Position numbers and translations under genes: made by a program. The notes under the pieces are model-generated. The model was not told the DNA's origin, searched no databases, and was given only the letters and a program-made list of their open reading frames with translations. Shown here in pieces: positions 233 to 52,291 of a stretch of DNA of 64,000 nt. Numbering within the stretch: position 1 is the stretch's first letter; each line of letters starts with the position of its first letter. The stretch covers positions 2,221,826-2,285,825 of the forward strand of contig OZ253449.1 of NCBI GenBank assembly GCA_965261345.1, read 5' to 3'. This DNA is from Chloroflexota bacterium (GTDB taxonomy: Bacteria > Chloroflexota > UBA11872 > VXNJ01).

Positions 233-391
233 GAGAATTAGCAGGTTCATCGGTTGCATGGTCGGGGTCGGTCCTATTTGGGGCATCGTATCTCTCTAAA
301 TGTTGCCGTAGGGAGCACCCACCGCCCCCGGAATTTTTTTTGGTACCTTGGACTATCGGGTCGGTGCTCACACGGCCTGGAATCATGGGCG

Positions 392-403
392 CTCTCTAGA
401 GAG
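392..403. promoter_or_regulatory. Perfect 12-bp palindrome CTCTCTAGAGAG 12 nt upstream of the SRAP start codon
   Basis: Seen directly. Position is consistent with an operator or translation-control element. No canonical LexA/Cheo box was found. Confidence 0.3.
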
Positions 404-415
404 ATCGGCTTGGCA

Positions 416-1078
416 ATGTGCGGACGCTTCGGGCTCTTTTCCGACCTCGATCATCTGGCCGAGCAATTCGGCTTTGAGCCGCTGGCGTTGCGCGAGCTTT
501 ACCAGACCTCCTACAACGTTGCCCCGACCCAGGATGTGTTGACGGTTTCCGCTCCCGGGCTAACCCTGGAACCGATATGGATGCGCTGGGGGCTGGTGGC
601 CCCCTGGCTGGCCGCCGGGCGGCCGCTGGGCAAACCGATCTTCAACGCCCGGTCGGAGACGATCGCGCAGAAACCGATGTTTCGCAGTGCCTTCCGCCGC
701 CGCCGCGGCCTGGTGCTCGCCGATGGCTTCTATGAGTGGCAGCGGATCGGCGCGCGCCGGCAAGCGCACTGGATTCGCCGGCGCGACCGGGCGCCGCTGG
801 CGCTGGCAGCGATATGGGAGCGGCAGGCCGGATCGGGGCTCCGCTCCTGTGCGGTCGCCACCACCACCGCCAACGAACTTATGGCGCCGGTCCACCAGCG
901 GATGCCGGTTCTATTGGATCCGACGACGGTTTCGCGCTGGCTGGACCCGGGCGCTGGCCGCGATGAGTTGCTCTCCCTCTGCGATCCCCGGGCGTGGCCG
1001 GACATGGAGGTGCTGGCGGTCTCAGATAGGGTTGGCCGGGTGGCCAACAACGACCCCAGCCTCATCGATCCGATTTAG
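416..1078 (+). CDS. SRAP-domain (SOS-response associated peptidase, YedK/HMCES family) abasic-site processing protein
   Basis: The ORF track opens at 254, but the family-typical N-terminus MCGRF (ATG at 416-418) lies inside it. The Cys2 nucleophile requires Met1 removal, so 416 is the biological start. The whole sequence matches the SRAP fold (FNARSET, DGFYEW). Confidence 0.8.
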   Translation: MCGRFGLFSDLDHLAEQFGFEPLALRELYQTSYNVAPTQDVLTVSAPGLTLEPIWMRWGLVAPWLAAGRPLGKPIFNARSETIAQKPMFRSAFRRRRGLVLADGFYEWQRIGARRQAHWIRRRDRAPLALAAIWERQAGSGLRSCAVATTTANELMAPVHQRMPVLLDPTTVSRWLDPGAGRDELLSLCDPRAWPDMEVLAVSDRVGRVANNDPSLIDPI

Positions 1079-1103
1079 GCGGTAGGGCGGCCGCTGGCGC
1101 CGC

Positions 1104-4100
1104 TTAACCCCAATCGCGGCTTGGTTCATTGACCACCAGTTCGGCCGACCAGGGCGGGGCCAGGGCCCGGGCCCGGTCGACCATGATGTTGGCGCAACCG
1201 TCGCGGCGTGACATCTCTCCCTCCACCAGCACCAGCGGGGCACAGAGGGCGTCGCGGTGCCTGTCCCAGGTCGACGGCCAGACCGCCAGCGGGACCATCC
1301 CGAATTCATCCTGCAGGGTCATAAAGATCATCTGCCCCAGCGGCCGCTGCCGCCGCAGCACCTTGCCGGCGACGCTGATCCGGACACCGTCAGGGACGTG
1401 GGCAAGCTGGCGGCTGCTTAGCACCGACCCGGCCAGCTGCGGGCGCAGGACCGACATCACATGACCATCGGTCCAGAGCCCCAGGGTTTGGTACTCGTAG
1501 GCCATCCGGCTAGATGCCGGCAACGGCGCGAGATTGGCCATCGTCGCTCCAAGCGGCAGCGGCAGGGGAGCCTGGGCCGAGGGCGGGCGGTAGCGCAGAC
1601 CCACCTCCCAGAGGGCTTGCCGGCGATCGTCAAATCCGGCCAGCCGGTCGCAGGCCCCGGCCTTGACCAGGGCTTCCAGGGCCCCCTGGTAGAGCCCGCT
1701 GCGAGCCACCAGGTCGCCCAGCGAGCGGAAATTTCCGCTCTTTACGCGCGCGTCCAGCATTCGCTGGGCGCTGGTCTGTTCTACGCCGGCCACAAACGTT
1801 AAGCCCATCCGGAAGGCCGCCTTGCCCGCGGGACTGCAGCGCAGCTGGCTGCGGTTAACGTCCGGCCCAAGGACGCTGACCCCGCGTTGGTGGGCATCTT
1901 CCTTGAGGGTCTCGATCGACCAGAAGCCCATCGGCTGAGCATTAAAGATCGCACAGTAAAACTCAACCGGAAAGTAATGCCGCACCCAGGCCATGTGATA
2001 GGCGGTGGCGCCGAAGGCCAGGGCATGGGCCTCGGGGAACATGTAATGCGGGTTGAATTTCTTAAATATCCGATCGGCTATCGCGGTCGGCACCCCGCGC
2101 GCCCTGGCGCCATCGCGGAAGCGCTCCCAGTAGGAACGGAGCAGGTCGGTGTTGTTGCGGCGCTGAAAGGCCCGCCGCAGCAGATCAGATTCCGAGGCCG
2201 ACAGACCGCCCACGTCCATCCCCAGCTGGACCACCTGGTCCTGGAAGAGAATGATCCCCAGCGACTTGGCCAATGCCCGCTCCTCCAAGGGGTGGTCATA
2301 GTCCCAGGCCCGTCCACCGCGGCGGCGCAGGAATTCCGATACCCCGTCATTGGCTCCCACCCCGGGCCGCACGGCGGCCACCTCCAGGGCCATGTCGTAG
2401 AGATGGCGGGGCTTCATGCGCGCGATCGTCTGCATCTGCGCGGCGCTCTCGACCTGGAACACCCCCACCGTGTCGCCGCGACCCAGGTCGGCATAGACCG
2501 CCGGATCGGCATGATCAATCCGGCTCAGATCGAGTCGCCGGTGGTGGCGGGCCTCGATCAGCTGCAGGCACTCCTGTAGCTGCGAGAGCGCGCCGAGAGC
2601 TAGGAAATCGATCTTGACAAAGCCGGCATCCTCGATCGTGTGTTTGTCCCACTGGCAGATGTAGCGTCCGGCAATTGCCGACGGCTGCACCGGCACCATC
2701 TCGCTAAGTGGCCGCGAACTGATGATCATCCCGCCCGGATGCTGCGCCAGCCCCTTGGGAAACCCCTGCAACTGACCGCCCAGCTCGATCAGGTCGCGCC
2801 AGCCGCGGTGATCGCGCTTGCCCGCCAGCTGCGGTATCTTGGTCAGCGCCTCCTCCAGGTCGGCCGCCGATCGCGATTCGGCGCGGCGGGCCAGGAGTTC
2901 AAGCTCGGTGGCCGGCAACCCCAGCGCCCGGCCGACATCGCGGACCGCGCCCTTGAGGCGGTAGGTGGGGATCATCGCGGTGAGCGCGGCGCGCTCGGGG
3001 CCCAACTCGGCAAACACCTTCAGGATCAGTTTTTCGCGGATGTCGCGCGGAAAATCCAGATCGATGTCGGGTGGACCAACCAGCCGGTCCTCGGGCAGGA
3101 ACCGCTCCAGTGGCAGATCGTATTGCAGGGGGTCGACATGTGAGAGCCCGATCAGGGTGCCGGTGAGCATGGCCACCGATGAGCCGCGCCCGCGCCCGGG
3201 TGCGCGTTCAGCCAGCGGGGCTCCCGCCGGCAGGTGTCCCAACTCGACGGCAACCTGCCTGGCCCACTCGATGATTTGGCGGTAGAGCAGAAAGAATCCG
3301 GCCAGGTCGTGTTTGGCAATCAGGCGGAATTCCTCGTCCAGGCGCGCCTGGACGGCGGGGCCGATCCGGCCGTAGCGCTGCCGGGCGGCGGCCCGGCAGA
3401 CATGCTCGAAATAGGCCTGCCCACTGGCAAAACCGGGCGGGATCGGGTAGCTGGGGAAGGAATAGCGGATCTGCTTGGCGGCAAAGGCCATGCAGCGCCG
3501 GGCGATCAGGTCGTTGTTGGCCAGCGCCTGCGGCCAGCGCCTGAACAGGCGGGCCAATTCGGAGCGCTCGCGCAGGTGGTAGTTGCGGTTTGGGTGCCGC
3601 TGGCGATGACAGCCGTCAAGGGTGGTATTGAGGCGAATTGCGGTCAGGACGTCGCAGAGTCGATGGCGGCTGCGGTCGTGATAGCAGGCCCCATTGGTTG
3701 CGACGATGCCAATTCCCAGGTGGCCGGCCAGCTGGGCCCGGTCACGATTGCCGGCCAGCTCGCCGGGGGCAAGATGGCGCTGCAGTTGCACAAAGACCGC
3801 CTCGTTGCCCAGCATCTGGCAGTAGCTGCCCAGCAATCGGCGGGCGGCGGCGATGTTGCCGGCCGCAAGCAGTTGCGCCAGATGTCCACCCGGGGCCCCC
3901 ACCAGGGCGATGAGTCCCTGCCCGTGCTCGGCCAATTGCCCGCGATCGAGTACCGGATCGCGGCGATCGCCCCGCTGGTGGGCGTTGCTGATCAGGCGGC
4001 ACAAATTGGCATAGCCGATTCCGGTTTCGGCCAGCAGGGTGATGGGGGCGGGCTTGAGCTGGTCGTGCGCAATTGCCAGCTCGGCGCCGATGATCGGCTT

Positions 4101-4286
4101 TATCCCCACCGCCTGGGCGGCCGCGGCCAGTTCCAGCGCCCCGGTCAGGTTATTGCGGTCGGTAAGGGCCAGCGCCCGATAGCCCAGCTGGGCCGCGCGG
4201 GCGACCAGTTCGTCAACCGATGAGGCTCCCCGCCCGAACGAGTACCAGCTCCGGCAGGCCAGCTCGCTGTAGCTTGGCAGCTCCAT
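1104..4286 (-). CDS. dnaE2: Error-prone DNA polymerase III alpha-like subunit DnaE2 (ImuC)
   Basis: 1060 aa. PHP-domain N-terminus MELPSYSELACRSWYSFGRGASSVDELV.ALALTDRNNLTG and a Pol III alpha core. The length (shorter than DnaE1) and position immediately downstream of an ImuB-like gene are typical of the mutasome polymerase. Confidence 0.85.
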   Translation of the reverse strand: MELPSYSELACRSWYSFGRGASSVDELVARAAQLGYRALALTDRNNLTGALELAAAAQAVGIKPIIGAELAIAHDQLKPAPITLLAETGIGYANLCRLISNAHQRGDRRDPVLDRGQLAEHGQGLIALVGAPGGHLAQLLAAGNIAAARRLLGSYCQMLGNEAVFVQLQRHLAPGELAGNRDRAQLAGHLGIGIVATNGACYHDRSRHRLCDVLTAIRLNTTLDGCHRQRHPNRNYHLRERSELARLFRRWPQALANNDLIARRCMAFAAKQIRYSFPSYPIPPGFASGQAYFEHVCRAAARQRYGRIGPAVQARLDEEFRLIAKHDLAGFFLLYRQIIEWARQVAVELGHLPAGAPLAERAPGRGRGSSVAMLTGTLIGLSHVDPLQYDLPLERFLPEDRLVGPPDIDLDFPRDIREKLILKVFAELGPERAALTAMIPTYRLKGAVRDVGRALGLPATELELLARRAESRSAADLEEALTKIPQLAGKRDHRGWRDLIELGGQLQGFPKGLAQHPGGMIISSRPLSEMVPVQPSAIAGRYICQWDKHTIEDAGFVKIDFLALGALSQLQECLQLIEARHHRRLDLSRIDHADPAVYADLGRGDTVGVFQVESAAQMQTIARMKPRHLYDMALEVAAVRPGVGANDGVSEFLRRRGGRAWDYDHPLEERALAKSLGIILFQDQVVQLGMDVGGLSASESDLLRRAFQRRNNTDLLRSYWERFRDGARARGVPTAIADRIFKKFNPHYMFPEAHALAFGATAYHMAWVRHYFPVEFYCAIFNAQPMGFWSIETLKEDAHQRGVSVLGPDVNRSQLRCSPAGKAAFRMGLTFVAGVEQTSAQRMLDARVKSGNFRSLGDLVARSGLYQGALEALVKAGACDRLAGFDDRRQALWEVGLRYRPPSAQAPLPLPLGATMANLAPLPASSRMAYEYQTLGLWTDGHVMSVLRPQLAGSVLSSRQLAHVPDGVRISVAGKVLRRQRPLGQMIFMTLQDEFGMVPLAVWPSTWDRHRDALCAPLVLVEGEMSRRDGCANIMVDRARALAPPWSAELVVNEPSRDWG

Positions 4287-4288
4287 GA

Positions 4289-4582
4289 TTAGTAGCTTTG
4301 CTGGTACCAGCGCCCGCTGACCAGGTCGCAGAACACGGTCAGCAACTGTCCGCTGGCTAGCAACAGCTGGAAATAACGGCGGCGGATCGGCTCATCGCGC
4401 CACCATTCATCATCTAGTTCCCATACGTCCAGCAGCGCCCGCACCGGAATTTGCCGGCCAGGGTGTGGTGCAACCGCCAGCGGGAGGCCGCGATCATCAC
4501 TGTGCACACCGGTGGCGCGCGGCAGGTTTACGGGGCGGTAAAACGGACCAGCGCCTGGCGCCGTTCCGGAATGCGTGACCAT
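4289..4582 (-). CDS. Small ORF between imuB and dnaE2; possibly the frameshifted C-terminal tail of ImuB (DUF4113-like), otherwise a hypothetical protein
   Basis: 97-aa ORF overlapping the 3' end of imuB by ~55 nt in a different frame. It ends in the conserved-looking motif WELDDEWWRDEPIRRRYFQLLLASGQLLTVFCDLVSGRWYQQ, 3 nt before the dnaE2 start. Confidence 0.35.
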   Translation of the reverse strand: MVTHSGTAPGAGPFYRPVNLPRATGVHSDDRGLPLAVAPHPGRQIPVRALLDVWELDDEWWRDEPIRRRYFQLLLASGQLLTVFCDLVSGRWYQQSY

Positions 4583-5727
4583 GGTTCTACTTCAATTACC
4601 CGCAGCAACGCCTCGCCGGCGAGGCGTTTACCCAGCCGGGCTACCGCGACCTGCAGGTCGGTTTTGCGCGATTGCGACCAGAGTTCGGCCTGGATGGTGG
4701 GCACCGTATCAAGCTGGCCCAGTTCGACCTGGAGGTTCTCGACCGGACCGGGCAGGCCCAGTGGCCCATCGCCCAGCCCCGCCAGTCCTGCCTGGATGGC
4801 TGAGTGGGCGGCGGCGGGGCTGGCGGCCAACTCCTTGAAAGTGTGCCTAAAAGACCAGGTCGGGTGATCGCTGATCTGCCCGATCAGGACCGCTTGACCA
4901 GCTGCCCTTCCCTCCATTGCCGGGAGGCGGTATAGGCGCTGCAACAGGGCCAGCAGCCCACTGCTGAAGGCCTCTACACTCACCGCTGGAAATGGAAACT
5001 CGAGCCGGTCGGCAGCCGTTGGCGTGGCCGGCAATGGCCTTAAAGGGGCGTGGTCGCGACCCTGGGCCAGCTCCCAGGCCCGGGCCCCGTCGGGACCGAA
5101 GCGCGCGCGCAGGGCCGCTTGCGGCTGGGCGGCCAGGTCGCCGATGCACTGTAGGCCGAAATCCTCAAGCAGTCGACGCGTTGCCTCCGGCAACGGCAGC
5201 AGCGATAGCGGCAGATCAGCCAGGAAGGACCGCAAGGCCTCCGGACTGGTCGGAGCCGGCAGCATCTGATTGGCGCCCGACTGCTCGGCCGCACAATAGG
5301 CTGCGAATTTCCCCGTGCCCATCCCCAGCCGAACCTCCCAGTCGCCCGCGACGGCAGCGCGCAGGCGGCCGGTTAGGCCGCCAATGCCCCCGTAGAGCGC
5401 GGCCAGCCCACCTATATCGATGTAGGCATGACCCGGATCGGTGCTTTCAACCCCGGGAAAGCAGTTGGCCAGATGACCGATTACGCGTTCCCAACAGAGG
5501 CGGTAATGGACCGGGTCGGCGGCAATGAGGGCCACATCCGGGTAACTGGCCAGAATCTGGCTGAGCGGGGTTCCCGGCCGGGCGCCGATTGTCGGACTTG
5601 CCTCGCGTAGCCGCGGGCGCGAGGCGATGCCGTCGTAGATTACCAGCGGGCGTCCGGCCAGCTCGCGATGGCGTGCTGATTCGGCCTGCAGGGCCAGCCG
5701 GGGAATGATCAAACAAGCTACATACAT
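4528..5727 (-). CDS. imuB: ImuB, Y-family-polymerase-like mutasome component
   Basis: Y-family/UmuC-like fold starting MYVACLIIPRLALQAESARHRELAGRPLVIYDG (ATG = revcomp of 5725-5727). The ORF track extends to 5838, but the family-typical N-terminus begins at 5727. Sits directly upstream of dnaE2. Confidence 0.75.
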   Translation of the reverse strand: MYVACLIIPRLALQAESARHRELAGRPLVIYDGIASRPRLREASPTIGARPGTPLSQILASYPDVALIAADPVHYRLCWERVIGHLANCFPGVESTDPGHAYIDIGGLAALYGGIGGLTGRLRAAVAGDWEVRLGMGTGKFAAYCAAEQSGANQMLPAPTSPEALRSFLADLPLSLLPLPEATRRLLEDFGLQCIGDLAAQPQAALRARFGPDGARAWELAQGRDHAPLRPLPATPTAADRLEFPFPAVSVEAFSSGLLALLQRLYRLPAMEGRAAGQAVLIGQISDHPTWSFRHTFKELAASPAAAHSAIQAGLAGLGDGPLGLPGPVENLQVELGQLDTVPTIQAELWSQSRKTDLQVAVARLGKRLAGEALLRVIEVEPWSRIPERRQALVRFTAP

Positions 5728-5964
5728 AGTCCATGATGATATCAAAACAAGATATGAAAGATGCATACGTTTAGCTAACGCAATAATGCAATTACCGCCC
5801 ACGTCCGGGTAGCCCGATGCCCGGATCCGATTTGCCAATAGCCGGCTCTCCCCTGCCGGTCCGGTCCGCCAGCGGCGGCTTTTTTAAAAAATCCCTTGTA
5901 AGGTCGGGTAATTTGGAGCGCAAATTGATAATTTGGAGGCTGAGCGTTTCAAACTGTCCGTTTT

Positions 5965-7053
5965 GTGCTGGAATGCCCTGGCCTAAAGCACCGATTCGTC
6001 CTGGGAGCTGCCGTGCCGTTGACTGACGACTTTCAAATTCCGGTATCAGATGCGCCGTTTTGCGCCGAGACCGACCTGTCTGCCCAGCAGGACTGGCGGA
6101 CCCCCATCGATCGTTTCTTCGTGCGCAGCCACTTTGCCGAGCCGACGCTTGGCACCGACCATCAGATTTCCATCCGGGGCGCGGTTGCCCGACCCTACTC
6201 GCTCGGCAGCGATCAGCTGCTGGAAATGGAATCGGTGACCCATACGGTCACCATCGAGTGCGCCGGCAACAGCCGATCGTATCTCTCACCGCCGGCGGCG
6301 GGCCTGCAGTTCCAGCATGGTGCGGCCGGCAACGCCAGCTGGGAAGGGGTGCCGCTGGCCGTGCTGCTGGAGTCGGCCGAGATCCTGCCCGGAGCGCTGG
6401 AGGTCCTGTTCCGCGGGGCCGATGCCGGTATGGAGGGCGGCGAGCACATGAGCTTTGAGCGCTCGCTGCCACTTGACCGGGCGCTTTCACCCGATACGAT
6501 CGTTGCGCATTCGATGAATGGTCGCCTGCTTACCCGGTCCCATGGGTTCCCGGCCCGCCTGATCGTGCCCGGCTGGTACGGGATGGCCTCGGTCAAATGG
6601 CTAACCGATATCGAGGTGATCGATTACCATTTTGACGGCCACTTCCAGTCCGATGCCTACACCTTTATTAATCCCGGCGCCGGCTCGGGCCCCAATCCCC
6701 CGGTTACGACCATGGCGATCAAGTCGGTCATCACCCGGCCGAACCAGGGCGCCAGGTTGCGGGGTCCGGTTACGATTTCCGGTTTTGCCTGGTCGGGCAA
6801 TGGCTTGGTAGACCTGGTCGAGGTGAGCCCCGACCAGGGCGAAAGCTGGATTGCCGCCGATTTGGCGCCGACCGATTCCCCGCGTGCCTGGCGCGGGTGG
6901 AGCCTGGACTGGCATCCGCCGGGCAGCGGACACTATGTTCTTTCCGCCCGGGCCCGCGATGCGGCCGGCAACATGCAACCGCGACGAGCCAGCTGGAATT
7001 ACCGCGGCTACGTAAATAACGCGATGCAGGCCATCTCGGTCATTGTTGAATAG
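5965..7053 (+). CDS. Sulfite-oxidase-family molybdopterin oxidoreductase (Mo-co binding domain plus dimerisation domain)
   Basis: Motifs VRSHFAEP and ECAGNSRS (Mo-ligating Cys). C-terminal Ig-like Moco dimerisation region. Confidence 0.75.
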   Translation: MLECPGLKHRFVLGAAVPLTDDFQIPVSDAPFCAETDLSAQQDWRTPIDRFFVRSHFAEPTLGTDHQISIRGAVARPYSLGSDQLLEMESVTHTVTIECAGNSRSYLSPPAAGLQFQHGAAGNASWEGVPLAVLLESAEILPGALEVLFRGADAGMEGGEHMSFERSLPLDRALSPDTIVAHSMNGRLLTRSHGFPARLIVPGWYGMASVKWLTDIEVIDYHFDGHFQSDAYTFINPGAGSGPNPPVTTMAIKSVITRPNQGARLRGPVTISGFAWSGNGLVDLVEVSPDQGESWIAADLAPTDSPRAWRGWSLDWHPPGSGHYVLSARARDAAGNMQPRRASWNYRGYVNNAMQAISVIVE

Positions 7054-7114: not shown

Positions 7115-7188
7115 TGGCTGGGGTAGAAGGATTCGAACCTCCGCTACGTGGGCCAGAACCACGCGTCCTACCGCTAGACGATACCCCA
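7115..7188 (-). tRNA. tRNA-Gln (anticodon CTG)
   Basis: Minus strand reads TGGGGTATCGTCTAGCGGTAGGACGCGTGGTTCTGGCCCACGTAGCGGAGGTTCGAATCCTTCTACCCCAGCCA. Folds as a cloverleaf with anticodon loop TTCTGGC, a GGTTCGAATCC T-arm and an encoded CCA. Confidence 0.85.
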
Positions 7189-7268: not shown

Positions 7269-9704
7269 GTGATCCGAACGAGTCCGATTTACCACGCCGG
7301 GCGGCCCGCAGCGGGCCGATTGCTGCTGTTTGCCCTAGCGCTCTTTTCAGCGCTGGCGCTGGCGGGCGGGGCCGCCGCGGTCGCGGTGCGGGCGCTGGGT
7401 GAAGAAAACGAGGGGATTTGCAATTACTCGGCGCCGATGCGCAATGCCCTGCTTGCGCACGAGGAAAAGGAATTCTTCCTGTGTGATTCGTCTCCGTTTA
7501 CCGATGATGATCAGGACTTTATCTGGGCCGGCGATCTGGACCTGGCAAGCCATGTGGGCTCGTACTTTACCCCCGGCCAGGGCGAGCTGGACGGCTATGC
7601 TGCAGGGTCACGCGTGGATTTGATCAGGCCCGGCTTTGCGGTAGACGACATAAATGCCGACGCGGCGCTGGAGTCGTACCGGAACAACGAGGATTACCGT
7701 GAGTTCGGCATCGATTCCCAAGGGTCGGAGGCCGATCGGCAAAACTCCGACGGAGTGCTGGGTCTAACCTTCCTGCTGGACGGTTCACCGCCGGCCCGCA
7801 GCGGATTGACCAGCGACAGGTTCTTCGGCACCGAGGGCGAACTGGTGTGGATTACCTTCCAGATGGGGGATCCGCCGGATGGATTCTCCAACTGGAAGGA
7901 TTCTGATCTCGATGGCGATGGTTTTTATCTAACGCTTGAGCTGGAAATTGAAACGTCCGGCGATTCGCGCTCGGTTTTCTTCCTGGTCAATTCGGATGAT
8001 CCGCCCGATACCCTCTATGCAATCCCATTCTTAATTCCCGAAAACGATGAGATCGAATCGACCCAACGGGTTGACGTGAACCTGACCCCAGTCGGCGTAT
8101 ACGACACCCGCGTGGACGCCGCCGACCTGGCGCCGACCGACTACATCGACGATGAGGAAGATCGATTCGAAGAGATCGAGCGGGCGCTCGCGCGCGGCGA
8201 TCGGGCAACCCTTGAGGTGAGCGACGACGACCTGCCGGCCAATCGGGTTTGTGACCGCAGCCGGGTGGTAACCGAGGCGCTGGAGGCGGCCACCGGTGAT
8301 GATTGCGATGAAATCAGCGTCGCCGACCTGGCCGGCATCGCCGACCTTGATCTTTCGGAGCTGGGAATCGAGACACTGGCCGCCGATGATTTCGCCGGCC
8401 TCGCAAAGTTGCGGAGATTGGACTTGGCTGGAAATGACATCTCCAGCCTGCCGGCCGGCGTTTTTTCCGGGGTCGGCTCCGAACTGACCGCGCCGACGGT
8501 GGCAGTGATTGACATAAGTGACAATGCCGGTCCCGCCGATCGCGGATTTTCACTGGCCAACGTGTCAAGCCGATTTCGCGCGAGCATGAAAGCGCGCCAG
8601 GCCGTCCGGCTCAATTCGTTCGTTAACATAAGCGACCCCAGCTACGGTTTCGAAGATTCCTCGTATTCGGTTCGCGAGGGGCAAAACCTGGTTGTCGGGC
8701 TCTCGGCCTTCCGCGATAGCACTATCACGTTCCGGGCGTTTGCGCGCGACAGCGGGCGCTATTCCGACACCGATTGCCAAGCCCCCTGTGAGGCCCCCGG
8801 GGCAGCGGTGATCGATGAGGACGGAGAGTATCTGCTCGGGTTTTCGGTACCGATCGACGAAGACGAGAACGACGATACCTTCACCATGCTTTACGGAGCG
8901 GGCATTGATCCCGACTCACTGGACTCGATCGCCGGCCTGGCAAAGCTCACCGTGACCGAAGCGGCGGTTGTGCTACCCAGCGAATTTGATTCGATCGTGG
9001 TATTGGCGGGCACCGAACTGATTACGGCCCCGAACAATCCCGACTTAGACCACAACCTCTCTGATCTATCAGTTACCCGCGGCCGGCTGCGCCTGAACGC
9101 TCCTTTCCGGCAGTTCTACTACGACACCGGCGGCCTTACACGCTGGGGCTACCCGACCTCGGAAGTCCTTATGCTTGAACCTGGCACGCTTTCGCAGTTC
9201 TTCCAGCGCGGTGTGGTCGACTTTCACGATGTCGGCTTCGGCTGGATCCTGGAACGGCGATTGACCTGGGACTACGTAGGTGGTGGAGCCGGCGGAAGCT
9301 TTGACCAGGGGGTCGAACCGGCGCCGGTTCAACCGGGCGGCGGACCGGTGGTCGGATTCGGTCACGCAGTGACCAACCAGACCGCCAGCGGGGGTCGCAC
9401 CGGATTCCTCGACACCTACAACGAACTCGGCGGAGTGGACAGTTTCGGCTATGCCAAGACGGCTGCGCGGGTGGACACCAACCTGCCGGGGACGCTATTC
9501 GAACCCGGTACAACCCCAGGATTTATTCGACAGTACTTCCAGGCGGCAATCTTCCAGCGCTCTGCGGCGGGCACCGTCGAAATTACCCTGCTGGGCGATA
9601 CGCTGCGCAATCAGTTGGTGCCGCAGCACTCCAGCATCCCCGCCTTCAGGCGCGCCAACCGGCTGCTGGAAGGTCAGGTCCTGAATCTGCAGCTGATCAA
9701 TTGA
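7269..9704 (+). CDS. Secreted/cell-surface protein: signal peptide, acidic Asp/Glu-rich region, leucine-rich repeats, two C-terminal LGFP-type repeats
   Basis: N-terminal hydrophobic segment LLLFALALFSALALAGGAAAVA. LRR-like LDLSELGIETLAADDFAGLAKLRRLDLAGNDISSLPAGVF. C-terminus GGLTRWGYPTSEV...GTLSQFFQRGVVDF and ELGGVDSFGYAKT...GFIRQYFQAAIFQ fit the LGFP cell-wall-anchoring repeat pattern. Paralogous to the CDS at 51587-52291. Confidence 0.7.
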   Translation: MIRTSPIYHAGRPAAGRLLLFALALFSALALAGGAAAVAVRALGEENEGICNYSAPMRNALLAHEEKEFFLCDSSPFTDDDQDFIWAGDLDLASHVGSYFTPGQGELDGYAAGSRVDLIRPGFAVDDINADAALESYRNNEDYREFGIDSQGSEADRQNSDGVLGLTFLLDGSPPARSGLTSDRFFGTEGELVWITFQMGDPPDGFSNWKDSDLDGDGFYLTLELEIETSGDSRSVFFLVNSDDPPDTLYAIPFLIPENDEIESTQRVDVNLTPVGVYDTRVDAADLAPTDYIDDEEDRFEEIERALARGDRATLEVSDDDLPANRVCDRSRVVTEALEAATGDDCDEISVADLAGIADLDLSELGIETLAADDFAGLAKLRRLDLAGNDISSLPAGVFSGVGSELTAPTVAVIDISDNAGPADRGFSLANVSSRFRASMKARQAVRLNSFVNISDPSYGFEDSSYSVREGQNLVVGLSAFRDSTITFRAFARDSGRYSDTDCQAPCEAPGAAVIDEDGEYLLGFSVPIDEDENDDTFTMLYGAGIDPDSLDSIAGLAKLTVTEAAVVLPSEFDSIVVLAGTELITAPNNPDLDHNLSDLSVTRGRLRLNAPFRQFYYDTGGLTRWGYPTSEVLMLEPGTLSQFFQRGVVDFHDVGFGWILERRLTWDYVGGGAGGSFDQGVEPAPVQPGGGPVVGFGHAVTNQTASGGRTGFLDTYNELGGVDSFGYAKTAARVDTNLPGTLFEPGTTPGFIRQYFQAAIFQRSAAGTVEITLLGDTLRNQLVPQHSSIPAFRRANRLLEGQVLNLQLIN

Positions 9705-9780: not shown

Positions 9781-10347
9781 GTGCGAGTCGTGCAATTAGG
9801 CTGGCGGACGGTGGCTTCGCGATTGGCCTGGAGCGGCCGCTTTCCGGTGTTTGAGGATGAGATCGAAGCCGAATTCGACGGACGCCGCCACACCTACACC
9901 TACCTTGCCTCGCGGGCCCGGGCGGTTTCCATCCTGGCCCAGGGCGTGGACGGTCGGATATTAACGGTGCGCGAATACCGTCACCCGCTCGGACAGGTCG
10001 TGCGCGACCTGCCGATGGGGTCGCTGCGCAAGGATGAGGACCCGTTGGCGGGGGCGGCCCGCGAACTGCGTGAAGAAACCGGGTACCGCGCCGGTAAGCT
10101 CGCATGGTTTGGCGCGGTGCATCCGATTCCGGCGCTCACCCGCCTTCGTTTGGAGTATTTTTTCGCCCAAAACCTCGAATTCGTCGGCGCCCAGCGCGAT
10201 GAATCAGAAATCATGGAAACCGATTGGCTAGAACTGGGGCAAGTGGTCGCTGGAATCGAGGCCGGCAACCTGCAGGCCGGTTCGATCCAGTTGGGGGTCC
10301 TAATGGCCGCCCAGCGCGGTTTGATCTGCCTGCCCGCGCCGGCATGA
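9781..10347 (+). CDS. NUDIX hydrolase
   Basis: Nudix box G.AARELREETGY. Stop overlaps the gltX start (ATGA). Confidence 0.75.
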   Translation: MRVVQLGWRTVASRLAWSGRFPVFEDEIEAEFDGRRHTYTYLASRARAVSILAQGVDGRILTVREYRHPLGQVVRDLPMGSLRKDEDPLAGAARELREETGYRAGKLAWFGAVHPIPALTRLRLEYFFAQNLEFVGAQRDESEIMETDWLELGQVVAGIEAGNLQAGSIQLGVLMAAQRGLICLPAPA

Positions 10348-11870
10348 AGCCCGAAACGCCTACCCGGCCGCGCTATCGGATCGCCCCCAGCCCCACCGGC
10401 TCGATCCACATCGGCACCGCCCGGACGGCGCTTTACAACTACCTGCTAGCCCGTCAAAGCGGTGGAGATTTCGTGTTACGGGTCGAGGACACCGCCCGCG
10501 ATCGAAACCGGCCTGAATGGGAAGCGGCGATATATTCGGGGCTTGCCTGGTTGGGCCTGGATTGGGATGAGGGTCCCGATATCGGCGGGCCCTATGGGCC
10601 CTACCGCCAGAGCGAACGCTTAGAACAACATCGCGTCTGGCTTGATCGCCTCATTTGCAGCGGCCGGGTCTATCGCTGTTTTTGCAGCCCGGAAGAGCTG
10701 GCTCAGGAACGCTGGGACGCCCAGCGGGCCAAACTACCGCCGCGCTATTCCGGGCGCTGCCGGCGGCTGTCGGATGCTCAGGTTTCCGCCCGCCTGGCGG
10801 GCGGTGAACCTGCCACCTACCGCTTTGCGGTCCCGCAAAAAAGCGTTGGCTACCCGGATTTGATAATGGGTAACCTGGAGGAAGACGCGGCCCTGTGGGG
10901 TGATTTCATCGTGGCCCGTTCCGACCACTCACCGGTCTACAACTTCGCCGTGGTGGCCGACGACTGCGACATGGCCATTACCTGCGTTCTGCGGGGGGCC
11001 GACCACATCTCCAACACGTTCAAGCAACTGGTGCTCTATGAGGCGCTCGGGGTTGAGGCTCCGCAGTTTGGGCACATCCCCTTGGCGCTTAATGCAAAAC
11101 GGCAAAAGCTCTCCAAACGGGACGGATCGGTCTCGATTGCCGAATACCGCGATCTGGGCTATCTCCCCGAGGCGGCAAACAATTTCATGGCCCTCCTGGG
11201 GTGGAACCCCGGCGATGAACGTGAGTTTTTCACCCTTGACCAACTGGTGTCCGAGTTCTCCGTGGCGCGCATCAATCGCTCCAACGGGGTCTTCGACAAC
11301 GATCGCCTGGACTGGTTCAACGGTCAATATCTGCGCCAGTTGAAGCTCCCGCAACTGGCCGAACGGGCCTGGACCTGGCTGCAGGCGAGTGGCTACTTTG
11401 ACGGTGCGGGTTCCCCGCGGAAATCGATCGGCGATGGAACCCTCGACTTCCAGCCGGTGGACCGCCCCGAGCGCGAGTACTTTTCCTCCGCCCTGGGCCT
11501 GGAACAGGAGCGGATCAAGAAACTGGCCGATCTGCCGGCGGTCATTTCGTTCTTTTTCGTCGATCGCGTCGATCCCGAGTTAAAGGATCTGGTGGCCCGC
11601 CGGCAGAGCCCCCAGGACACCGCGGCCGCGCTTACCCGGGTGGCCGATTGGACCCGCGGGCGCGATCTTTCCGATCTGGCCGCCACCGAAGATTTCCTCC
11701 GCAGCCTGGCCGCAAGTCTGGGTTGGAAGGCCGGAGTATTGTTCATGCCAATCCGGATCGCGCTGACCGGTTCGAAGGCGACTCCGCCGCTATTTGAAAC
11801 GATGGCCGTCCTGGGCGCCGGTCGGGTCCAGGACCGGCTCCGCCGGGCCGTTGCGGGCCTTGATGGCTAG
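10344..11870 (+). CDS. gltX: Glutamate--tRNA ligase
   Basis: Class I HIGH motif (SIHIGTART) and KMSKS-like KLSKRDG. ATG at 10344 precedes MKPETPTRPRYRIAPSPTG. The ORF track's upstream extension from 10224 is unlikely to be translated. Confidence 0.9.
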   Translation: MKPETPTRPRYRIAPSPTGSIHIGTARTALYNYLLARQSGGDFVLRVEDTARDRNRPEWEAAIYSGLAWLGLDWDEGPDIGGPYGPYRQSERLEQHRVWLDRLICSGRVYRCFCSPEELAQERWDAQRAKLPPRYSGRCRRLSDAQVSARLAGGEPATYRFAVPQKSVGYPDLIMGNLEEDAALWGDFIVARSDHSPVYNFAVVADDCDMAITCVLRGADHISNTFKQLVLYEALGVEAPQFGHIPLALNAKRQKLSKRDGSVSIAEYRDLGYLPEAANNFMALLGWNPGDEREFFTLDQLVSEFSVARINRSNGVFDNDRLDWFNGQYLRQLKLPQLAERAWTWLQASGYFDGAGSPRKSIGDGTLDFQPVDRPEREYFSSALGLEQERIKKLADLPAVISFFFVDRVDPELKDLVARRQSPQDTAAALTRVADWTRGRDLSDLAATEDFLRSLAASLGWKAGVLFMPIRIALTGSKATPPLFETMAVLGAGRVQDRLRRAVAGLDG

Positions 11871-12258: not shown

Positions 12259-13022
12259 GGATCTAGCAGCCACAGTTTCGCCCGACCGATCGGGTCGCTC
12301 GGGACTCGAAGATGACTGGGGTGCGTAATGGTTCCCGCCACCGCCCCAGCTTGGCCACTCCAACCATTCCACCAACCCGGGGCCTTCGCCCATCGCTCCC
12401 CTCGGCACCAGGGAGGGATCGAACTCATCCTCGATAACCGGTTCGATTGGAGCATTAAACGAGGGATGCTCGGCAAAGTCGGGTATTTAAAGTGACCACA
12501 TAGGGTTTCGCCCAAGAGGGTCAGCGGCAGGCGCAGCGGTCGCTTTGGGAGGTCGCTGGGGATTGAAAGATTGCGCCGGTTCAGCGCTTGGATTGACCAC
12601 GGCGGCCATCTGGGTCGAGTCGGCGGTGGGGTTCGAGTTATCGACTACAGACTGCCCGGTCGCAAATTCAACGTCGATTAGGGATCGGTGCAACTGGCCC
12701 ACAGTACGGATCGGGCAATCGCTGCGGCCGGCAGTGCCAGGGCGCCTCCGTCGGGGGCCGAAATTGTGCGTTTGATGGGCACTTGCAACATTTGCGGCAT
12801 ATTTTGCGCAGTTGGCTGCGGCCTGAACGGTAGCCGATGCGGTTTACCCTCGGGCGCGGTGCAATTGAACTCAGTTTTTTGGAAGATCGGTCCGAATAAC
12901 TTGTACCGGGCGGCATGGTGCGAATAATTTTTGACCAGTGGCGCTGGGACCCCAACTGTCGGGTTGATCGCCACCGGAATCGGGACGGCTCGGTACGAAC
13001 GCTTGAGCGGGTGGCCGGACTG

Positions 13023-17883: not shown

Positions 17884-20370
17884 TTAGTCGCGATTGGTTC
17901 CGGATCGGACGTTGCGGCCGGGCGCGTAGCGGGAAAGCAGGGCCGACCGGTCGATCCACATCTCGCCGACCTGGAATGCGAAACCGCCTTGATGGAGTGG
18001 CGCCATATCGGCCTGGCCGGTGTCCGCGTGGTCTCTATTGCGGCGCAGGTGCGCGGTTCGTTCTGGCATGTAGAGAGAGAGCAGGCCGAGCATGTAGGCC
18101 CGATCTAGTTCACGGCGCCAGGTTGGCGGTTGCTCGCGGATTGAAAATCCCAACCGCCGAGCTCCCCGAAAAAGTAGGGTCGTTGCGGTAACCGCTTGCA
18201 CACAGCGACCATTGCGGTCGAGCGAACCGTCGGCCATTTGTTGCGACAGGGCGGCCAGATCTTCGCGCAGGGTTTTGATGACCTGCCAGGTCCGGACCGG
18301 CGCGGCGGCACCGGCCAATCGGGCAAGCTGGCGGTTGGAAAAGTGAATCCGGCAAATTAAATCACCGCGGCGTATACGATTTCCATCTGGCAATATGAGC
18401 GGACGCCAATCCTTATGGATTTCCAAACCGTAGAGTAATAGGCCGTCGCTGCGCACCGGTTGCAACCGGTGCCAACGCGAGTAAAGTCGATCCCAAACCC
18501 ACCAAATCCAGAGCAGGCCGGAGGGGCGGCCCGGTGCGTGCTTGCCGGCGGATTTGAGGGCTATGCGCAACCCGGCGTGGGCCATTTGCCCAGCCACACG
18601 GGTCGCCGGCGGAGAAGGCGCTCCCGGTGCCGGCCCACCGGCCGAATACCAGCGCCGTCCAATCCCCAGAAAGCCCAACGCCCAGCGTAGAAACATCCAG
18701 ATCATCCCGATCCGCCAGGGCAGGGCGCGCAACCGCCGCGGCGAGGTGCGAATACTTGCGGCGCCGCGGTTTTGGCCGAGAAATTGGCTTGGACCGATGC
18801 GCTGCAACCGGCCGTTTGAGGATCGCAGCGACGCGGTCGCGCGGCGCATCAAATCCAGGTCCTCGGCCAGCTGCAGCTCGCAATCAAATCCGCCGAGGCG
18901 CTGGAATAGCTCCCAGTCTAAGTAGACCATCTGGGAATGGATGTCAAAGAGCCGCTTGCCAAATTCCAAAGCGTTGAAGAATCCGCACTCCCAGAAATTG
19001 TTCGATGCCGACTTGACCCGGATACTCCCGCCGTGGGAGCCGTTGCGCCAAGCTGAGGCCACTGCCAGAAGAACCGCCGGCTCCAGCGTGGAATCTGCAT
19101 CCAGAAAAACCAGCACGTCGCCACGTGCCAGGGTCGCGCCCAGATTTTTTGCCCGCGCCGTGCCACGGTTCGGTTCTTGCGCCAGGCGCACCGGCGGCAT
19201 ATCCGCCGGGGTGTCCGTCCAGCGGCGCGCCAGATTCTCGACCACGTCTACGGTGGTGTCGCGTGAACCGTTGTCTACGACCACGCATTCCACTCGGTCA
19301 AGCGGATATTGCTGCTCGGCAACCGATTTGAGCGCAAAGGTGATGTGGGATTGTTCGTTGAGGGCGGGCACAATTACTGAAATAAGCGGCGATTTTTGGT
19401 TGCCCTGGGACCGGCCATTGCCCAGCGCGAGCAACTGGCTGGCCGTTACGATGTCCCGTTGTGCCGCCAAAGCGGTAAGGTGATCGAGCACGCGCCGCCG
19501 CGCGCGGCCATCCTGGAGCCGTTGCGGATGCAGGAACACCTTGACCACCGGGCTGCGCGACAGACCTCCGTAACGGAGCCGGGCGAGCGCCGCGACGGCC
19601 CAGTTGCCCAATTGCAGCAACCGCTCGTGGAAGCCGCCAACTCCCATAAAACCCTGCCACGGGGTCGCGATCGCCCGCCCGGTCCGCAAGTCGCGCAACC
19701 CCGACTGTTCGAGCACATAGCGGTATCCGGCAGACGCCACACCGGACCGACCGGCGTGATTGGTCAGCCAGGCCGGGGCGCAAAATCCGTCCGGCTCCAC
19801 CCCGATGGCTTCGACGATAGCGCGCCGAGCGGCAAGGGCGGCTTCGCCGGCGATGGGAGCCGACAGGCTTGAGAATTCACTAGCCCGCGGGGCAAACAGC
19901 CGGCCCCGCAGGCGGGCAAGCGGCGAACCCTGCAACCTGCCGCGGGTCGTGTGCGACCAGCCGTGGGCAACGATCTCACTGCCGGCGGCGACCTCTGCCC
20001 GCAGCAGCCTGCACAGCTCCGCGTCTTCTGCCAGCGGCCAACGACCGGCATAGCAGGGCACCACCTTGAGTACGCGCGGCCGGATGTTGCGCTGATCCAA
20101 CTCGTCGAGCAACTGGCGCACTCCAGACGCAAACGGCGGCGCCACATCATGAATCGTAACCAGCAATTTGGGCCTGGGTCGCGAGCGGGAGTCGGCGCGC
20201 ATTCCCTTCATCCTAGAGTTCCAACCCCGCCGCACCGGAGACATCGATACGGGTTCGATCTCCAACCCCAGGGTGCGCCGCCCGCGGATATCAGGTCCAA
20301 AGTTCCTGCCTGCCTCATCGCTGAAAAGGTTGCTGACGGTGGCAGCCCACAGCGCCGCCACGGCGCCCAT
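17884..20370 (-). CDS. Large multidomain protein: polysaccharide-deacetylase-like (DUF2334-type) N-domain, family-2 glycosyltransferase, uncharacterised C-terminal domain
   Basis: 828 aa. Deacetylase-like region KLLVTIHDVAPPF...IVAHGWSHT. GT2 region LISVIVPALNEQ...VVVDNGSRD...FLDADS. C-terminal ~270 aa has two hydrophobic segments and no recognised family. The N-terminal ~60 aa is low-complexity, so the start is uncertain. Confidence 0.7.
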   Translation of the reverse strand: MGAVAALWAATVSNLFSDEAGRNFGPDIRGRRTLGLEIEPVSMSPVRRGWNSRMKGMRADSRSRPRPKLLVTIHDVAPPFASGVRQLLDELDQRNIRPRVLKVVPCYAGRWPLAEDAELCRLLRAEVAAGSEIVAHGWSHTTRGRLQGSPLARLRGRLFAPRASEFSSLSAPIAGEAALAARRAIVEAIGVEPDGFCAPAWLTNHAGRSGVASAGYRYVLEQSGLRDLRTGRAIATPWQGFMGVGGFHERLLQLGNWAVAALARLRYGGLSRSPVVKVFLHPQRLQDGRARRRVLDHLTALAAQRDIVTASQLLALGNGRSQGNQKSPLISVIVPALNEQSHITFALKSVAEQQYPLDRVECVVVDNGSRDTTVDVVENLARRWTDTPADMPPVRLAQEPNRGTARAKNLGATLARGDVLVFLDADSTLEPAVLLAVASAWRNGSHGGSIRVKSASNNFWECGFFNALEFGKRLFDIHSQMVYLDWELFQRLGGFDCELQLAEDLDLMRRATASLRSSNGRLQRIGPSQFLGQNRGAASIRTSPRRLRALPWRIGMIWMFLRWALGFLGIGRRWYSAGGPAPGAPSPPATRVAGQMAHAGLRIALKSAGKHAPGRPSGLLWIWWVWDRLYSRWHRLQPVRSDGLLLYGLEIHKDWRPLILPDGNRIRRGDLICRIHFSNRQLARLAGAAAPVRTWQVIKTLREDLAALSQQMADGSLDRNGRCVQAVTATTLLFRGARRLGFSIREQPPTWRRELDRAYMLGLLSLYMPERTAHLRRNRDHADTGQADMAPLHQGGFAFQVGEMWIDRSALLSRYAPGRNVRSGTNRD

Positions 20371-50997: not shown

Positions 50998-51554
50998 ATA
51001 ACCGCAGTCGAGAGCTTTGTCTATCGCCTCCCTGGCCGATCTTTCGTCGGAGCCTTAGTCTACCCCGACGAAGGCTTGACCGGCCCGGGTGAAGCCACCC
51101 TGATGGAGCGAAGCGGCAGCGTCCGGGCCGCTTTGATGGAAATGGGCGAAATCGTGGCGGAATGGATCCCATGGCCTCGGAAAACGTCTGGTGGCGGCTT
51201 TTCTTGGGTGATCGACGGCGCAGTGGGCCGGTGACCGCATCGGCCATCGACGCCATTGACGTGGCCGTCTGGGATATCCGTGGTCAGGCCCTCGGGGTTC
51301 CCATCCATACGCTGCTTGGAGGTGCGCTGCGCGCTGCGGTGCGGATGTACAACCATGCGGTCATGCCCGAACCGGTAGCGGTGGCGGATGCCCTCGGCCC
51401 GCTGCTGGAGGAGGGTTGGACGGCGGCTAAGTTCATCGCCTCACCTTCCGACCCCACCGGCGTGCCCAACCGCGAACGGTTCGATCCGCGGGCCGCAGTC
51501 CGGCGCGGCGCGGCCGCCACGGCGGCTGCCGCCCACCACCTGATTCTGAGCTAA
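50971..51554 (+). pseudogene. Enolase-superfamily (MR/MLE-type) N-terminal gene fragment, frameshifted
   Basis: Two overlapping frames encode …ITAVESFVYRLP… and …ASAIDAIDVAVWDIRGQALGVPIHTLLGG.LR…VRMY…, which resemble the capping domain of mandelate-racemase/muconate-lactonising enzymes. No barrel domain follows. Confidence 0.5.
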
Positions 51555-51586: not shown

Positions 51587-52291
51587 TTGGACAGCCTGCC
51601 GGTTAGAGCCATGGGCAATCCAAATCTTGACCACAACATCCGTGATCTCTTGGTATCGCTTGACGATGGCAGCAAGGTAACCGCGGGGTTCCTTTCCCAC
51701 TACAACCTGACCGGCCAGCTGGAGCGCTGGGGCTTTCCAACCTCAGAGGTACTGGTACTAGAAGACGGCACCCTAACCCATTTCTATCAAAGAGGGGCAG
51801 TTGACTTCCACTACCTGGGCAGCGGCTGGATTGTGGAAAGAAGACTTGCCTGCGACTACGTCGGTGGGGCAGCAGAGGGATCCACCGACCAGGGAGTAGA
51901 AACCGATCTTCTAAATCCTCATCCCGGTACGCTCTTAGGTCCCTGGGGATACAAGGTATCCGACTTTGCCATCGATGGCACCGAGGTTGGCTTTGCCGAA
52001 TTCTTTGTTGCCCTGGGCGGAGTCTCGGTCTCCGGCTTGCCCAAGATCGATGCCAGGGAGTACGTGGATCTTCCCGGCAGACTGCATGCCCCAGGGAGAA
52101 CCTACGGCTTTATCCGCCAGTACTTCCAGGCGGCGGTGCTAGAGTTTCATCCCAATGACGAGCGAACCCCGGTAATGCTGACCCTTCTGGGCGATACCCT
52201 GCGCGGCGTTCTGGTGCCCGACTTTGCCGAGCATCCTCCGTTTAACGCTGCCATAGAGCTGGTAATCGGAGACGGGTATGCGCCCTACTAG
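51587..52291 (+). CDS. LGFP-repeat protein (paralogous to the C-terminal domain of the 7269-9704 protein; no signal peptide, possibly a gene remnant)
   Basis: NPNLDHNIRDL…ERWGFPTSEVLVLEDGTLTHFYQRGAVDFH…YGFIRQYFQAAVLEF…TLLGDTLRGVLVP aligns residue-for-residue with residues ~600-800 of the large surface protein. Confidence 0.6.
   Translation: MDSLPVRAMGNPNLDHNIRDLLVSLDDGSKVTAGFLSHYNLTGQLERWGFPTSEVLVLEDGTLTHFYQRGAVDFHYLGSGWIVERRLACDYVGGAAEGSTDQGVETDLLNPHPGTLLGPWGYKVSDFAIDGTEVGFAEFFVALGGVSVSGLPKIDAREYVDLPGRLHAPGRTYGFIRQYFQAAVLEFHPNDERTPVMLTLLGDTLRGVLVPDFAEHPPFNAAIELVIGDGYAPY

Follow-up and report, generated by a model that had tools for sequence, protein, structure and literature searches.

A predicted surface protein of Chloroflexota ending in a putative far-diverged relative of the LGFP repeats

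A 64,000 nucleotide stretch from a Chloroflexota bacterium (assembly GCA_965261345.1, contig OZ253449.1, positions 2,221,826 to 2,285,825), referred to here as the window, contains a gene for a large acidic protein, p811, which raises the question of what the C-terminal part of such a protein does and where the protein acts. The complete coding sequence occupies 7269..9704 on the forward strand, exactly as given in an initial annotation made from the DNA letters alone, and encodes 811 residues. In the list of open reading frames (ORFs) it is bounded by TGA and TAA. The GTG start lies immediately 3' of an in-frame TAA and agrees in position with the starts of orthologues. On the evidence below, p811 is fairly probably an exported surface protein, in which a binding ectodomain is joined to a non-covalent envelope anchor, the anchor being a C-terminal module that acts as the surface-retention tag of this lineage. 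The module is recognised here as an LGFP-like domain of Chloroflexota that is uncatalogued, widespread and present in many copies.

The module spans residues ~572-811 (8982..9701, +) and is made up of strands, a first repeat, a linker, a second repeat, and a helix with a tail. Repeat 1 (residues 609-669; 9093..9275, +) has a helix and four strands and contains the motifs GGLTRWGYPTSE and 'SQFFQRG'. Repeat 2 (residues 707-783; 9387..9617, +) has a helix and three strands, an insertion of ~13 residues, and the motifs 'GGVDSFGYAKT' and 'RQYFQAA'; most homologues have FGFPKT in place of the 'FGYAKT' of p811. An AlphaFold2 (AF2) model of the module based on a 48-sequence alignment has a predicted local distance difference test (pLDDT) value of 88.3 and a predicted template modelling score (pTM) of 0.83. 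The predicted order is two strands, a helix-helix-four-strand unit, a Gly-rich linker, a helix-helix-three-strand unit, and a final helix. In module numbering, repeat 1 is modelled with helices at 26-32 and 35-39 and strands at 47-50, 53-58, 61-67 and 72-76, and repeat 2 with helices at 126-132 and 136-139 and strands at 166-170, 173-177 and 183-187. The two repeats match one another by hhalign (96.7%, E 3.8e-10) and are therefore homologous halves. Residues R167, Q168, F170 and Q171 are invariant in the 48 sequences, while G40 and G140 are nearly so, and the module is the most constrained region of p811, with a dN/dS ratio (omega) of 0.15. A Gly-rich loop between the repeats, 'GGGxGGSxDxGxEP' (9279-9320; module 84-97; protein 671-684), is nearly invariant and is the sole part of the module with a pLDDT below 50. 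The pattern of Gly and Asp in this loop could reflect metal binding or a flexible hinge.

A relationship to the LGFP repeats is most evident when single repeats are compared. Repeat 1 matches a profile of the LGFP repeats of PS1, constructed from four recovered PS1 repeat sequences, across the whole repeat (hhalign 87.2%, E 3.8e-6, 51 columns). The observed score of 30.3 is roughly 10 standard deviations above that of 80 column-shuffled controls (9.5 +/- 2.1, maximum 16.4), and the reversed profile scored 7.5. At the position of the LGFP motif there is W-G-Y-P in repeat 1 (residues 626-629) and F-G-[FY]-[PA] in repeat 2, aligning to the 'LGYP/LGFP/YGFP' of PS1. Likewise, the Q-x-F-Q-x-G of the module stands where PS1 has Q-x-F-E-x-G, and GG-x4-hG[FY]P[TS] is common to both. 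A Foldseek search with the module model against 350,542 PDB chains returned as its top match the LGFP domain of Corynebacterium glutamicum mycoloyltransferase A (MytA)/PS1 (6SWZ). The LGFP unit is described in one report (PMC11299179) as ~54 residues with an N-terminal helix and a 3-4-stranded antiparallel sheet, in which a Gly alone is strictly conserved. Both halves of the module, as modelled, agree with this description in having a helix and three to four strands. The features in common with the LGFP domains of MytA/PS1 (PDB 6SWZ, 6SX4) are thus a repeat of ~55-75 residues, with its N-terminal helix followed by the antiparallel sheet, an h-G-[FY]-P-[TS] motif in which the Gly is invariant, 'GG' before it and Q-x-F-[QE]-x-G after it, and a C-terminal position on a protein that is, or in p811 is predicted to be, exported.

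Several results argue against this relationship. The Pfam LGFP profile, PF08310, gave no match at E<=10 to p811, to the second copy of the module in the window (p234), to the isolated repeats, to the family consensus, or to 14 homologues, whereas the positive control PS1 scored 218 bits (E 1.1e-65, 5 repeats) against a gathering score of 22 bits. The Foldseek match to 6SWZ is weak (E 0.015, TM 0.21), as are the matches of repeat 2 to the PS1 profile (E 0.041) and of the whole module to a single PS1 sequence by hhalign (E 0.03). The MytA domain is a stalk of 4-5 repeats, and PS1 has five. The module does not form such a tandem array of ~4-5 contiguous repeats, having instead two repeats separated by a Gly-rich linker of ~40 residues, extra leading strands, and a C-terminal helix, all predicted to form a single compact globule. 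It is also found in Chloroflexota rather than Mycobacteriales, and arabinogalactan is not expected as its ligand. No NCBIfam model matched the module, sequence-profile searches of the PDB with it gave no match at E<=10, and a literature search on LGFP in Chloroflexi found no relevant paper.

The silence of PF08310, the empty PDB searches and the low Foldseek scores would also be expected if the resemblance were convergent or spurious, and the module an unrelated beta-rich domain, for example one for protein-protein docking or oligomerisation. This is very unlikely, as two independent methods singled out the same protein from among 48,000 to 350,000 chains, the profile match spans the whole repeat and is far outside the shuffled controls, and both motifs are common to the two families. 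Repeat 2 can be regarded as LGFP-like in spite of its weak match to PS1 because it is homologous to repeat 1. Since neither the PF08310 profile nor the expectation of a tandem array agrees with the module, it lies outside the Pfam LGFP family. Judged by its sequence and predicted structure, it appears to be a far-diverged two-repeat relative of LGFP with a different overall architecture. The initial annotation had proposed two LGFP-type repeats and had made the proposal depend upon PF08310. Taken to the letter it therefore fails, but it was right in kind, as there are two homologous repeats and these have a remote similarity to LGFP.

The module is a mobile extracytoplasmic domain and is not peculiar to p811. 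A profile of it identified 110 proteins in a word-indexed database, in none of which the module is covered by a Pfam domain. When hmmsearch was run exhaustively against 1.84 billion cluster representatives, it returned 1780 matches at E<=1e-3, of which 337 reach E<=1e-10 and 165 reach E<=1e-30. Among GTDB species representatives 252 relatives were confirmed, of which the best 80 are almost all from Chloroflexota metagenome-assembled genomes (MAGs). The names of several MAGs (RHO*, COS* and SB0662*) hint at a possible association with sponges. The module has at least 10 loci on the chromosome OZ244573.1 (2.36 Mb), at least seven on OZ252242.1, and at least six on OZ242304.1. Most of the 78 host ORFs examined have a strongly hydrophobic, signal-like start, with the module either at the C-terminus of proteins of 800-1560 residues or directly after the signal segment in proteins of ~600-650 residues. 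Its partners include long arrays of leucine-rich repeats (LRRs), 11 cadherin repeats, SWM/DUF11 repeats, cadherin-like and PPC domains, Reg_prop and Sortilin/BNR propellers, Trypsin_2 proteases, CotH kinases with a lamin-tail domain, and c-type cytochromes, to which the module is joined by Pro/Thr/Ala-rich linkers. All of these partners are extracytoplasmic.

Domains such as SLH, LysM, GW and the CWB/choline-binding repeats are modular, non-covalent wall anchors and can be seen as functional analogues. They are likewise promiscuous terminal modules with many copies per genome on unrelated exported proteins, although the p811 module has no sequence or fold relation to them and these Pfam families do not match it. 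The presence of the module on adhesin-like proteins, on enzymes and on cytochromes alike is best accounted for by retention on the cell producing them. The partners would also be compatible, in part, with a lectin or carbohydrate-binding module that targets an external glycan, such as a host-matrix or algal sulfated polysaccharide, in which case p811 would be a released binding protein. LGFP-type repeats are glycan binders, enzymes such as Trypsin_2 and CotH are among the fusion partners, as are propellers of a kind typical of glycan-sensing proteins, and sulfatases and glycosidases are abundant in the window and in its relatives. However, the fusion to c-type cytochromes through Pro/Thr-rich linkers fits retention on the producer rather than substrate targeting, no module fused to a glycoside hydrolase or sulfatase was found among ~30 proteins scanned, and the module occurs on structural or adhesive proteins with cadherin repeats and LRRs. 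External glycan targeting is for these reasons unlikely. One result favours it and counts against wall anchoring: no module was found in viral contigs and no phage lysin carries one, meaning that endolysins give no support for wall binding.

Retention of p811 at the surface presupposes export, for which the N-terminus is suited. Residues 1-42 (7269..7394, +) are signal-peptide-like in hydropathy and end at an invariant A42-L43-G44. The n-region contains R3, R12 and R17 (charge +3) and the hydrophobic stretch lies within residues 17-41, with an h-region of ~23 residues from L18 to V40 and a Kyte-Doolittle maximum of 2.27. The c-region, V40-R41-A42, is followed by L43-G44, and this A-L-G does not vary among the 14 near-full-length homologues, which are from Chloroflexota MAGs. 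A similar N-terminal layout is seen in 16 paralogues, with an AxA-like motif ahead of 'GIC.Y'. The signal peptide is probably cleaved after Val-Arg-Ala42, going by these sequence features, although the long h-region could alternatively serve as an uncleaved anchor. Sorting of p811 as a lipoprotein, or by LPXTG or PEP-CTERM, was ruled out, such motifs not being found in the sequence. We infer that p811 is exported.

Next to the signal segment is an acidic N-terminal ectodomain, residues 43-322 (7395..8234, +), with many invariant columns. It contains the Cys51/Cys72 region, a beta-rich part at ~167-279, and then helices up to an invariant 'DDD' (319-321). Its net charge is -48 and its isoelectric point (pI) 4.05, and Asp and Glu make up 22.9% of residues 51-330. 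Across p811 as a whole the pI is 4.16 and the net charge -76, which makes it the most acidic large protein among 18 compared from the window, the others ranging in pI from 4.6 to 11.1. The excess of negative charge is confined to residues 43-587, the last 224 residues being near neutral (net -3). The acidic region aligns readily across homologues at ~52% identity with dozens of invariant positions, and omega is 0.19 for residues 45-330. In the 14 homologues there are six invariant Cys, arranged as three local pairs (C51/C72, C328/C346 and C503/C507). A homology search with residues 43-330 found only four unannotated fragments, and this domain is restricted to the p811 family. A second acidic, beta-rich segment, residues 426-571 (8544..8981, +), is conserved and contains the invariant C503-x3-C507. 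It has an omega of 0.43 and predicted strands at ~463-563.

Between these two segments is the LRR unit, residues 323-425 (8235..8543, +), identified by its LRR_8 match and by BLASTP to the LRR protein P0015. It has an N-terminal cap with Cys328/Cys346 ('VCDRSRVV...C.EISVADLAGI') and ~3 leucine-rich repeats, with beta-strands at ~359-361, 383-385 and 410-415. The pLDDT of 70-84 makes it the best part of the N-terminal model. LRR_8 (PF13855) matches residues 354-391 of p811 with an E value of 2.2e-5 and 24.5 bits, below its gathering score of 27, and matches 14 of 14 family members, the best at 5.6e-8. Residues 302-419 match P0015, which has eight LRR_8 stretches, with a BLASTP E value of 1e-16. 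Of the features that the initial annotation had placed ahead of the module, a signal-like sequence is present, with its charged n-region, hydrophobic residues 17-41 and invariant 'ALG'. The leucine-rich repeats are genuine but minimal. The 'long Asp/Glu-rich low-complexity region' is strongly acidic but is not of low complexity: it is conserved and has invariant Cys, and the only low-entropy 20-mer windows in p811 are in the signal segment. The acidic region is folded, conserved sequence.

In Listeria internalins such as InlB the signal peptide is followed by a capped LRR, beta domains and GW repeats. p811 resembles this design in having a putative signal peptide, a capped LRR, tentatively predicted beta-sandwich domains, and C-terminal repeats that would bind the wall non-covalently. 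It differs in that it has only ~3 LRRs, with a Cys-Cys cap as in environmental LRR proteins, in that large acidic domains specific to the family lie on either side of the LRR, and in that its anchor has no relation to GW or LPXTG. Sequence homology between the two is limited to the LRR.

For the remainder of the ectodomain the predicted fold is of low confidence, and this also counts against the proposed reading of p811. The AF2 model of residues 45-590, built from 13 sequences, has a pLDDT of 51, with beta-rich segments at ~167-279 and 463-563 on either side of the better-predicted LRR. In Foldseek this model matches tandem beta-sandwiches, the best being the Calx-beta domains of NCX1 (CBD12, 3US9, E 1.3e-5; CBD1, 3GIN, TMt 0.61), and further weak matches are to RbmA, PAD Ig domains and the S-layer protein 7ptp. 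Because of the low pLDDT these matches are only leads. The acidic motifs IPENDEIESTQRVDVNL and VPIDEDENDDTFTMLYG, on direct reading of the sequence, resemble the C-terminal signature of Calx-beta. Pfam Calx-beta (PF03160) matches 0 of 14 family members, however, hhalign to the Pfam-verified Calx-beta segment of P0015 gave E values of only 0.09-0.19, and searches of PDB sequences for a Calx-beta relationship were empty. With all tests at the level of sequence negative, a Ca2+-binding beta-sandwich is likewise a lead only.

Taken together, these features suggest a sequence of events in which a Sec-type signal peptide would carry p811 across the membrane, with cleavage probably at the site given above. 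The mature protein would be a highly acidic, disulfide-stabilised ectodomain, with beta-rich segments around a capped three-repeat LRR. This is most likely a unit for binding or adhesion, and could be stabilised by Ca2+. The near-neutral module would then attach p811, by non-covalent binding, to an envelope polymer of the cell that made it, in the manner of MytA/PS1, and as the general surface-retention tag of the lineage it would do the same from either end of many other exported proteins. The MytA LGFP domain is reported to bind the cell wall, as peptidoglycan-arabinogalactan (PMC11299179). From the fusion partners of the module and the signal-like segments of its host proteins we infer envelope binding, and the adhesive role and Ca2+ binding of the ectodomain are proposals. 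Where the initial annotation saw a cell-wall-binding adhesin or scaffold of the envelope, the extracytoplasmic partners and the relation to LGFP agree with it, but its wall binding is an extrapolation. Overall, its picture of p811 as an acidic protein with LRRs that is exported and ends in an LGFP-related module for envelope association is retained, without the low complexity and without membership of the Pfam LGFP family.

The nature of the envelope polymer is affected by what is known of related bacteria. According to Bayer et al., genes for peptidoglycan synthesis are missing from sponge SAR202 genomes but occur in Anaerolineae and Caldilineae. The SAR202 case is a further point against retention on a murein wall. 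No peptidoglycan synthesis genes were found within the 64-kb window, and the source lineage may be without peptidoglycan. Were it so, as in the sponge SAR202, the tag would bind a non-murein polymer of the envelope.

An unusual, possibly peptidoglycan-free wall is also part of another explanation, in which p811 and three paralogues would form an S-layer-like scaffold. The LRR would then have no external ligand, and the module would mediate the attachment or self-assembly of the protein layer. The four conserved full-length paralogues in each small genome, the extreme acidity typical of Ca2+-bridged surface layers, the weak Foldseek matches to tandem Ig-like arrays, among them 7ptp (an S-layer protein) and RbmA (a scaffold of biofilms), the SAR202 symbionts without peptidoglycan genes, and the syntenic, housekeeping-like setting of the gene all fit a scaffold of this kind. 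The fold matches are weak, however, as they derive from the low-confidence N-terminal model, and the abundance and self-assembly expected of a lattice protein are unsupported. The presence of the module on enzymes and cytochromes is that of a generic tag, not of a lattice element. Both the scaffold and a lattice function of the module are consequently held to be improbable, and the exported surface protein with a retention module is preferred.

Extended to the whole family, the interpretation becomes more tentative. It is possible, though doubtful, that the di-repeat is an uncatalogued family of envelope-retention domains, a far-diverged sister of LGFP, and that it serves as a surface-display tag of marine Chloroflexota and some Actinomycetota. 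With similar reserve, this tag might display LRR and cadherin adhesins, propellers, proteases, CotH kinases and c-type cytochromes. Little is understood of the envelopes of Chloroflexota, most of which are uncultured. A retention module present at least 10 times per genome would let surface proteins be listed from sequence alone, including the 'eukaryote-like' LRR and cadherin proteins thought to mediate interaction between sponge hosts and symbionts. The domain would, if the interpretation is true, offer a way to predict from sequence which proteins uncultured Chloroflexota expose at their surface. The LGFP fold, for which the experimental evidence comes from one corynebacterial protein, would extend to another phylum and possibly to another ligand. 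For annotation, Pfam and NCBIfam now miss a conserved domain in ~165-1800 protein clusters. The main value is in this annotation and in prediction of the surface proteome.

p811 itself is under purifying selection, with an omega of 0.22-0.25 against orthologues (0.22 against one that is 99% identical). Four full-length paralogues with the p811 architecture are present in each of four Chloroflexota genomes of 2.1-2.4 Mb, one being ~50% identical to p811 and the other three ~33-37%. On OZ244573.1 these are L010, L014, L017 and L080, with equivalents in OZ252242.1, OZ242304.1 and CBDBBM01, and the identities of the four are about 50%, 35%, 33% and 33%. The N-terminal motif 'A-L-G ... G-I-C-x-Y' and the C-terminal module are present in all of them. 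The four-paralogue acidic family carrying the module is new, and the genome from which the window was taken presumably has three further p811-type copies beyond the window. As a protein p811 is not new, because one homologue is already labelled 'leucine-rich repeat domain-containing protein' by NCBI.

The second copy of the module in the window, the signal-less, module-only ORF p234 (51587..52291, +), exists as reported by the initial annotation and is 49% identical to the p811 module over 223 residues (E 4e-58). A comparison by dN/dS, which had been suggested there, separates the two copies. Compared with its orthologue in a strain with a 99%-identical p811, p234 has 11 non-synonymous and four synonymous changes and an omega of 0.91, as in neutral evolution, against 0.22 for p811 in the same pair of strains, and the excess of non-synonymous changes relative to the p811 module is significant (Fisher P 0.007; binomial P 0.016). 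In p234 a Trp that is nearly invariant elsewhere has become Cys (W->C), and the FG[FY]P motif has an F->S replacement. p234 is directly 3' of a truncated enolase-superfamily gene (region 50971-51554, +). In that region the ORF 51162-51554 (+) retains only MR_MLE_N positions 87-117 (E 3e-7), without the catalytic C-domain, and is 41% identical to an intact paralogue at 53391-54497. The ORF 50971-51234, in another frame, looks like the N-terminus of the same gene. The truncation suggests a scar of deletion or rearrangement, where p234 is probably a decaying remnant rather than a functional paralogue. Confidence in this is moderate, because there are only 15 substitutions.

A third copy of the module is reduced to its last 24 codons (12415..12486, -), with 67% identity to the tail of p234 (tblastn E 5.8e-5). 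This relic, IPDFAEHPSFNAPIEPVIEDEFDP, has an in-frame stop ahead of it and is situated in a gene-poor gap of ~1.15 kb between gltX and a GH4 gene. Together, p234 and the 24-codon relic are evidence for birth-and-death turnover of module-bearing genes.

p811 is a chromosomal gene with vertical inheritance. On its downstream side the order NUDIX-gltX-GH4-SDR-DUF6958-DUF454-HhH-GPD-SGL is preserved beside orthologues of 89% and 52% identity, the latter on the 2.36-Mb chromosome. Upstream, a tRNA-Gln gene with anticodon CTG (7115-7188, -) separates a molybdenum (Mo) cofactor oxidoreductase gene (5965-7053) from p811. A promoter of p811 would have to fit within the remaining ~80 bp, where no sigma-70-like site was found. 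p811, NUDIX and gltX may be co-transcribed. The NUDIX gene is at 9781-10347 (+), and the longest gltX ORF (10224-11870, +) begins with TTG at 10224 and overlaps it by ~120 nt. The true gltX start is probably near 10344, because in relatives gltX starts at the NUDIX stop with a 4-nt overlap. An operon or island as a functional clue to p811 was rejected, the neighbours being tRNA-Gln, NUDIX, gltX and the Mo-oxidoreductase, in a synteny that looks housekeeping.

Further upstream is a damage-inducible mutagenesis cassette (254-5838) of an SRAP peptidase (254-1078, +), a DnaE2-type error-prone polymerase (1104-4286, -), and an ImuB-like Y-family protein (4528-5838, -). This SRAP-DnaE2-ImuB cassette is upstream of p811 in close relatives, but not in the relative with 52% identity. 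On OZ244573.1 a gene for GPP34 (Golgi phosphoprotein 3, PF05719), L003 (6413-6844, -), lies ~3 kb upstream of the p811 orthologue. A 2025 paper (PMC11706023) links GPP34 to sponge symbiosis in Actinobacteriota, in agreement with the sponge-style names of MAGs that carry the module. Downstream in the window, at 17884-20370 (-), is an 828-residue fusion with a pI of 11.1, combining DUF2334 (polysaccharide-deacetylase-like), a family-2 glycosyltransferase and YkoP. It is pure speculation that this is an envelope or exopolysaccharide synthase and the source of the polymer bound by the anchor. A second ORF of 811 residues (43797-46232, -) was considered as a paralogue of p811 and ruled out, as it encodes an unrelated GH3 glycosidase that also has PA14 and Fn3-like domains; that both proteins have 811 residues is a coincidence.

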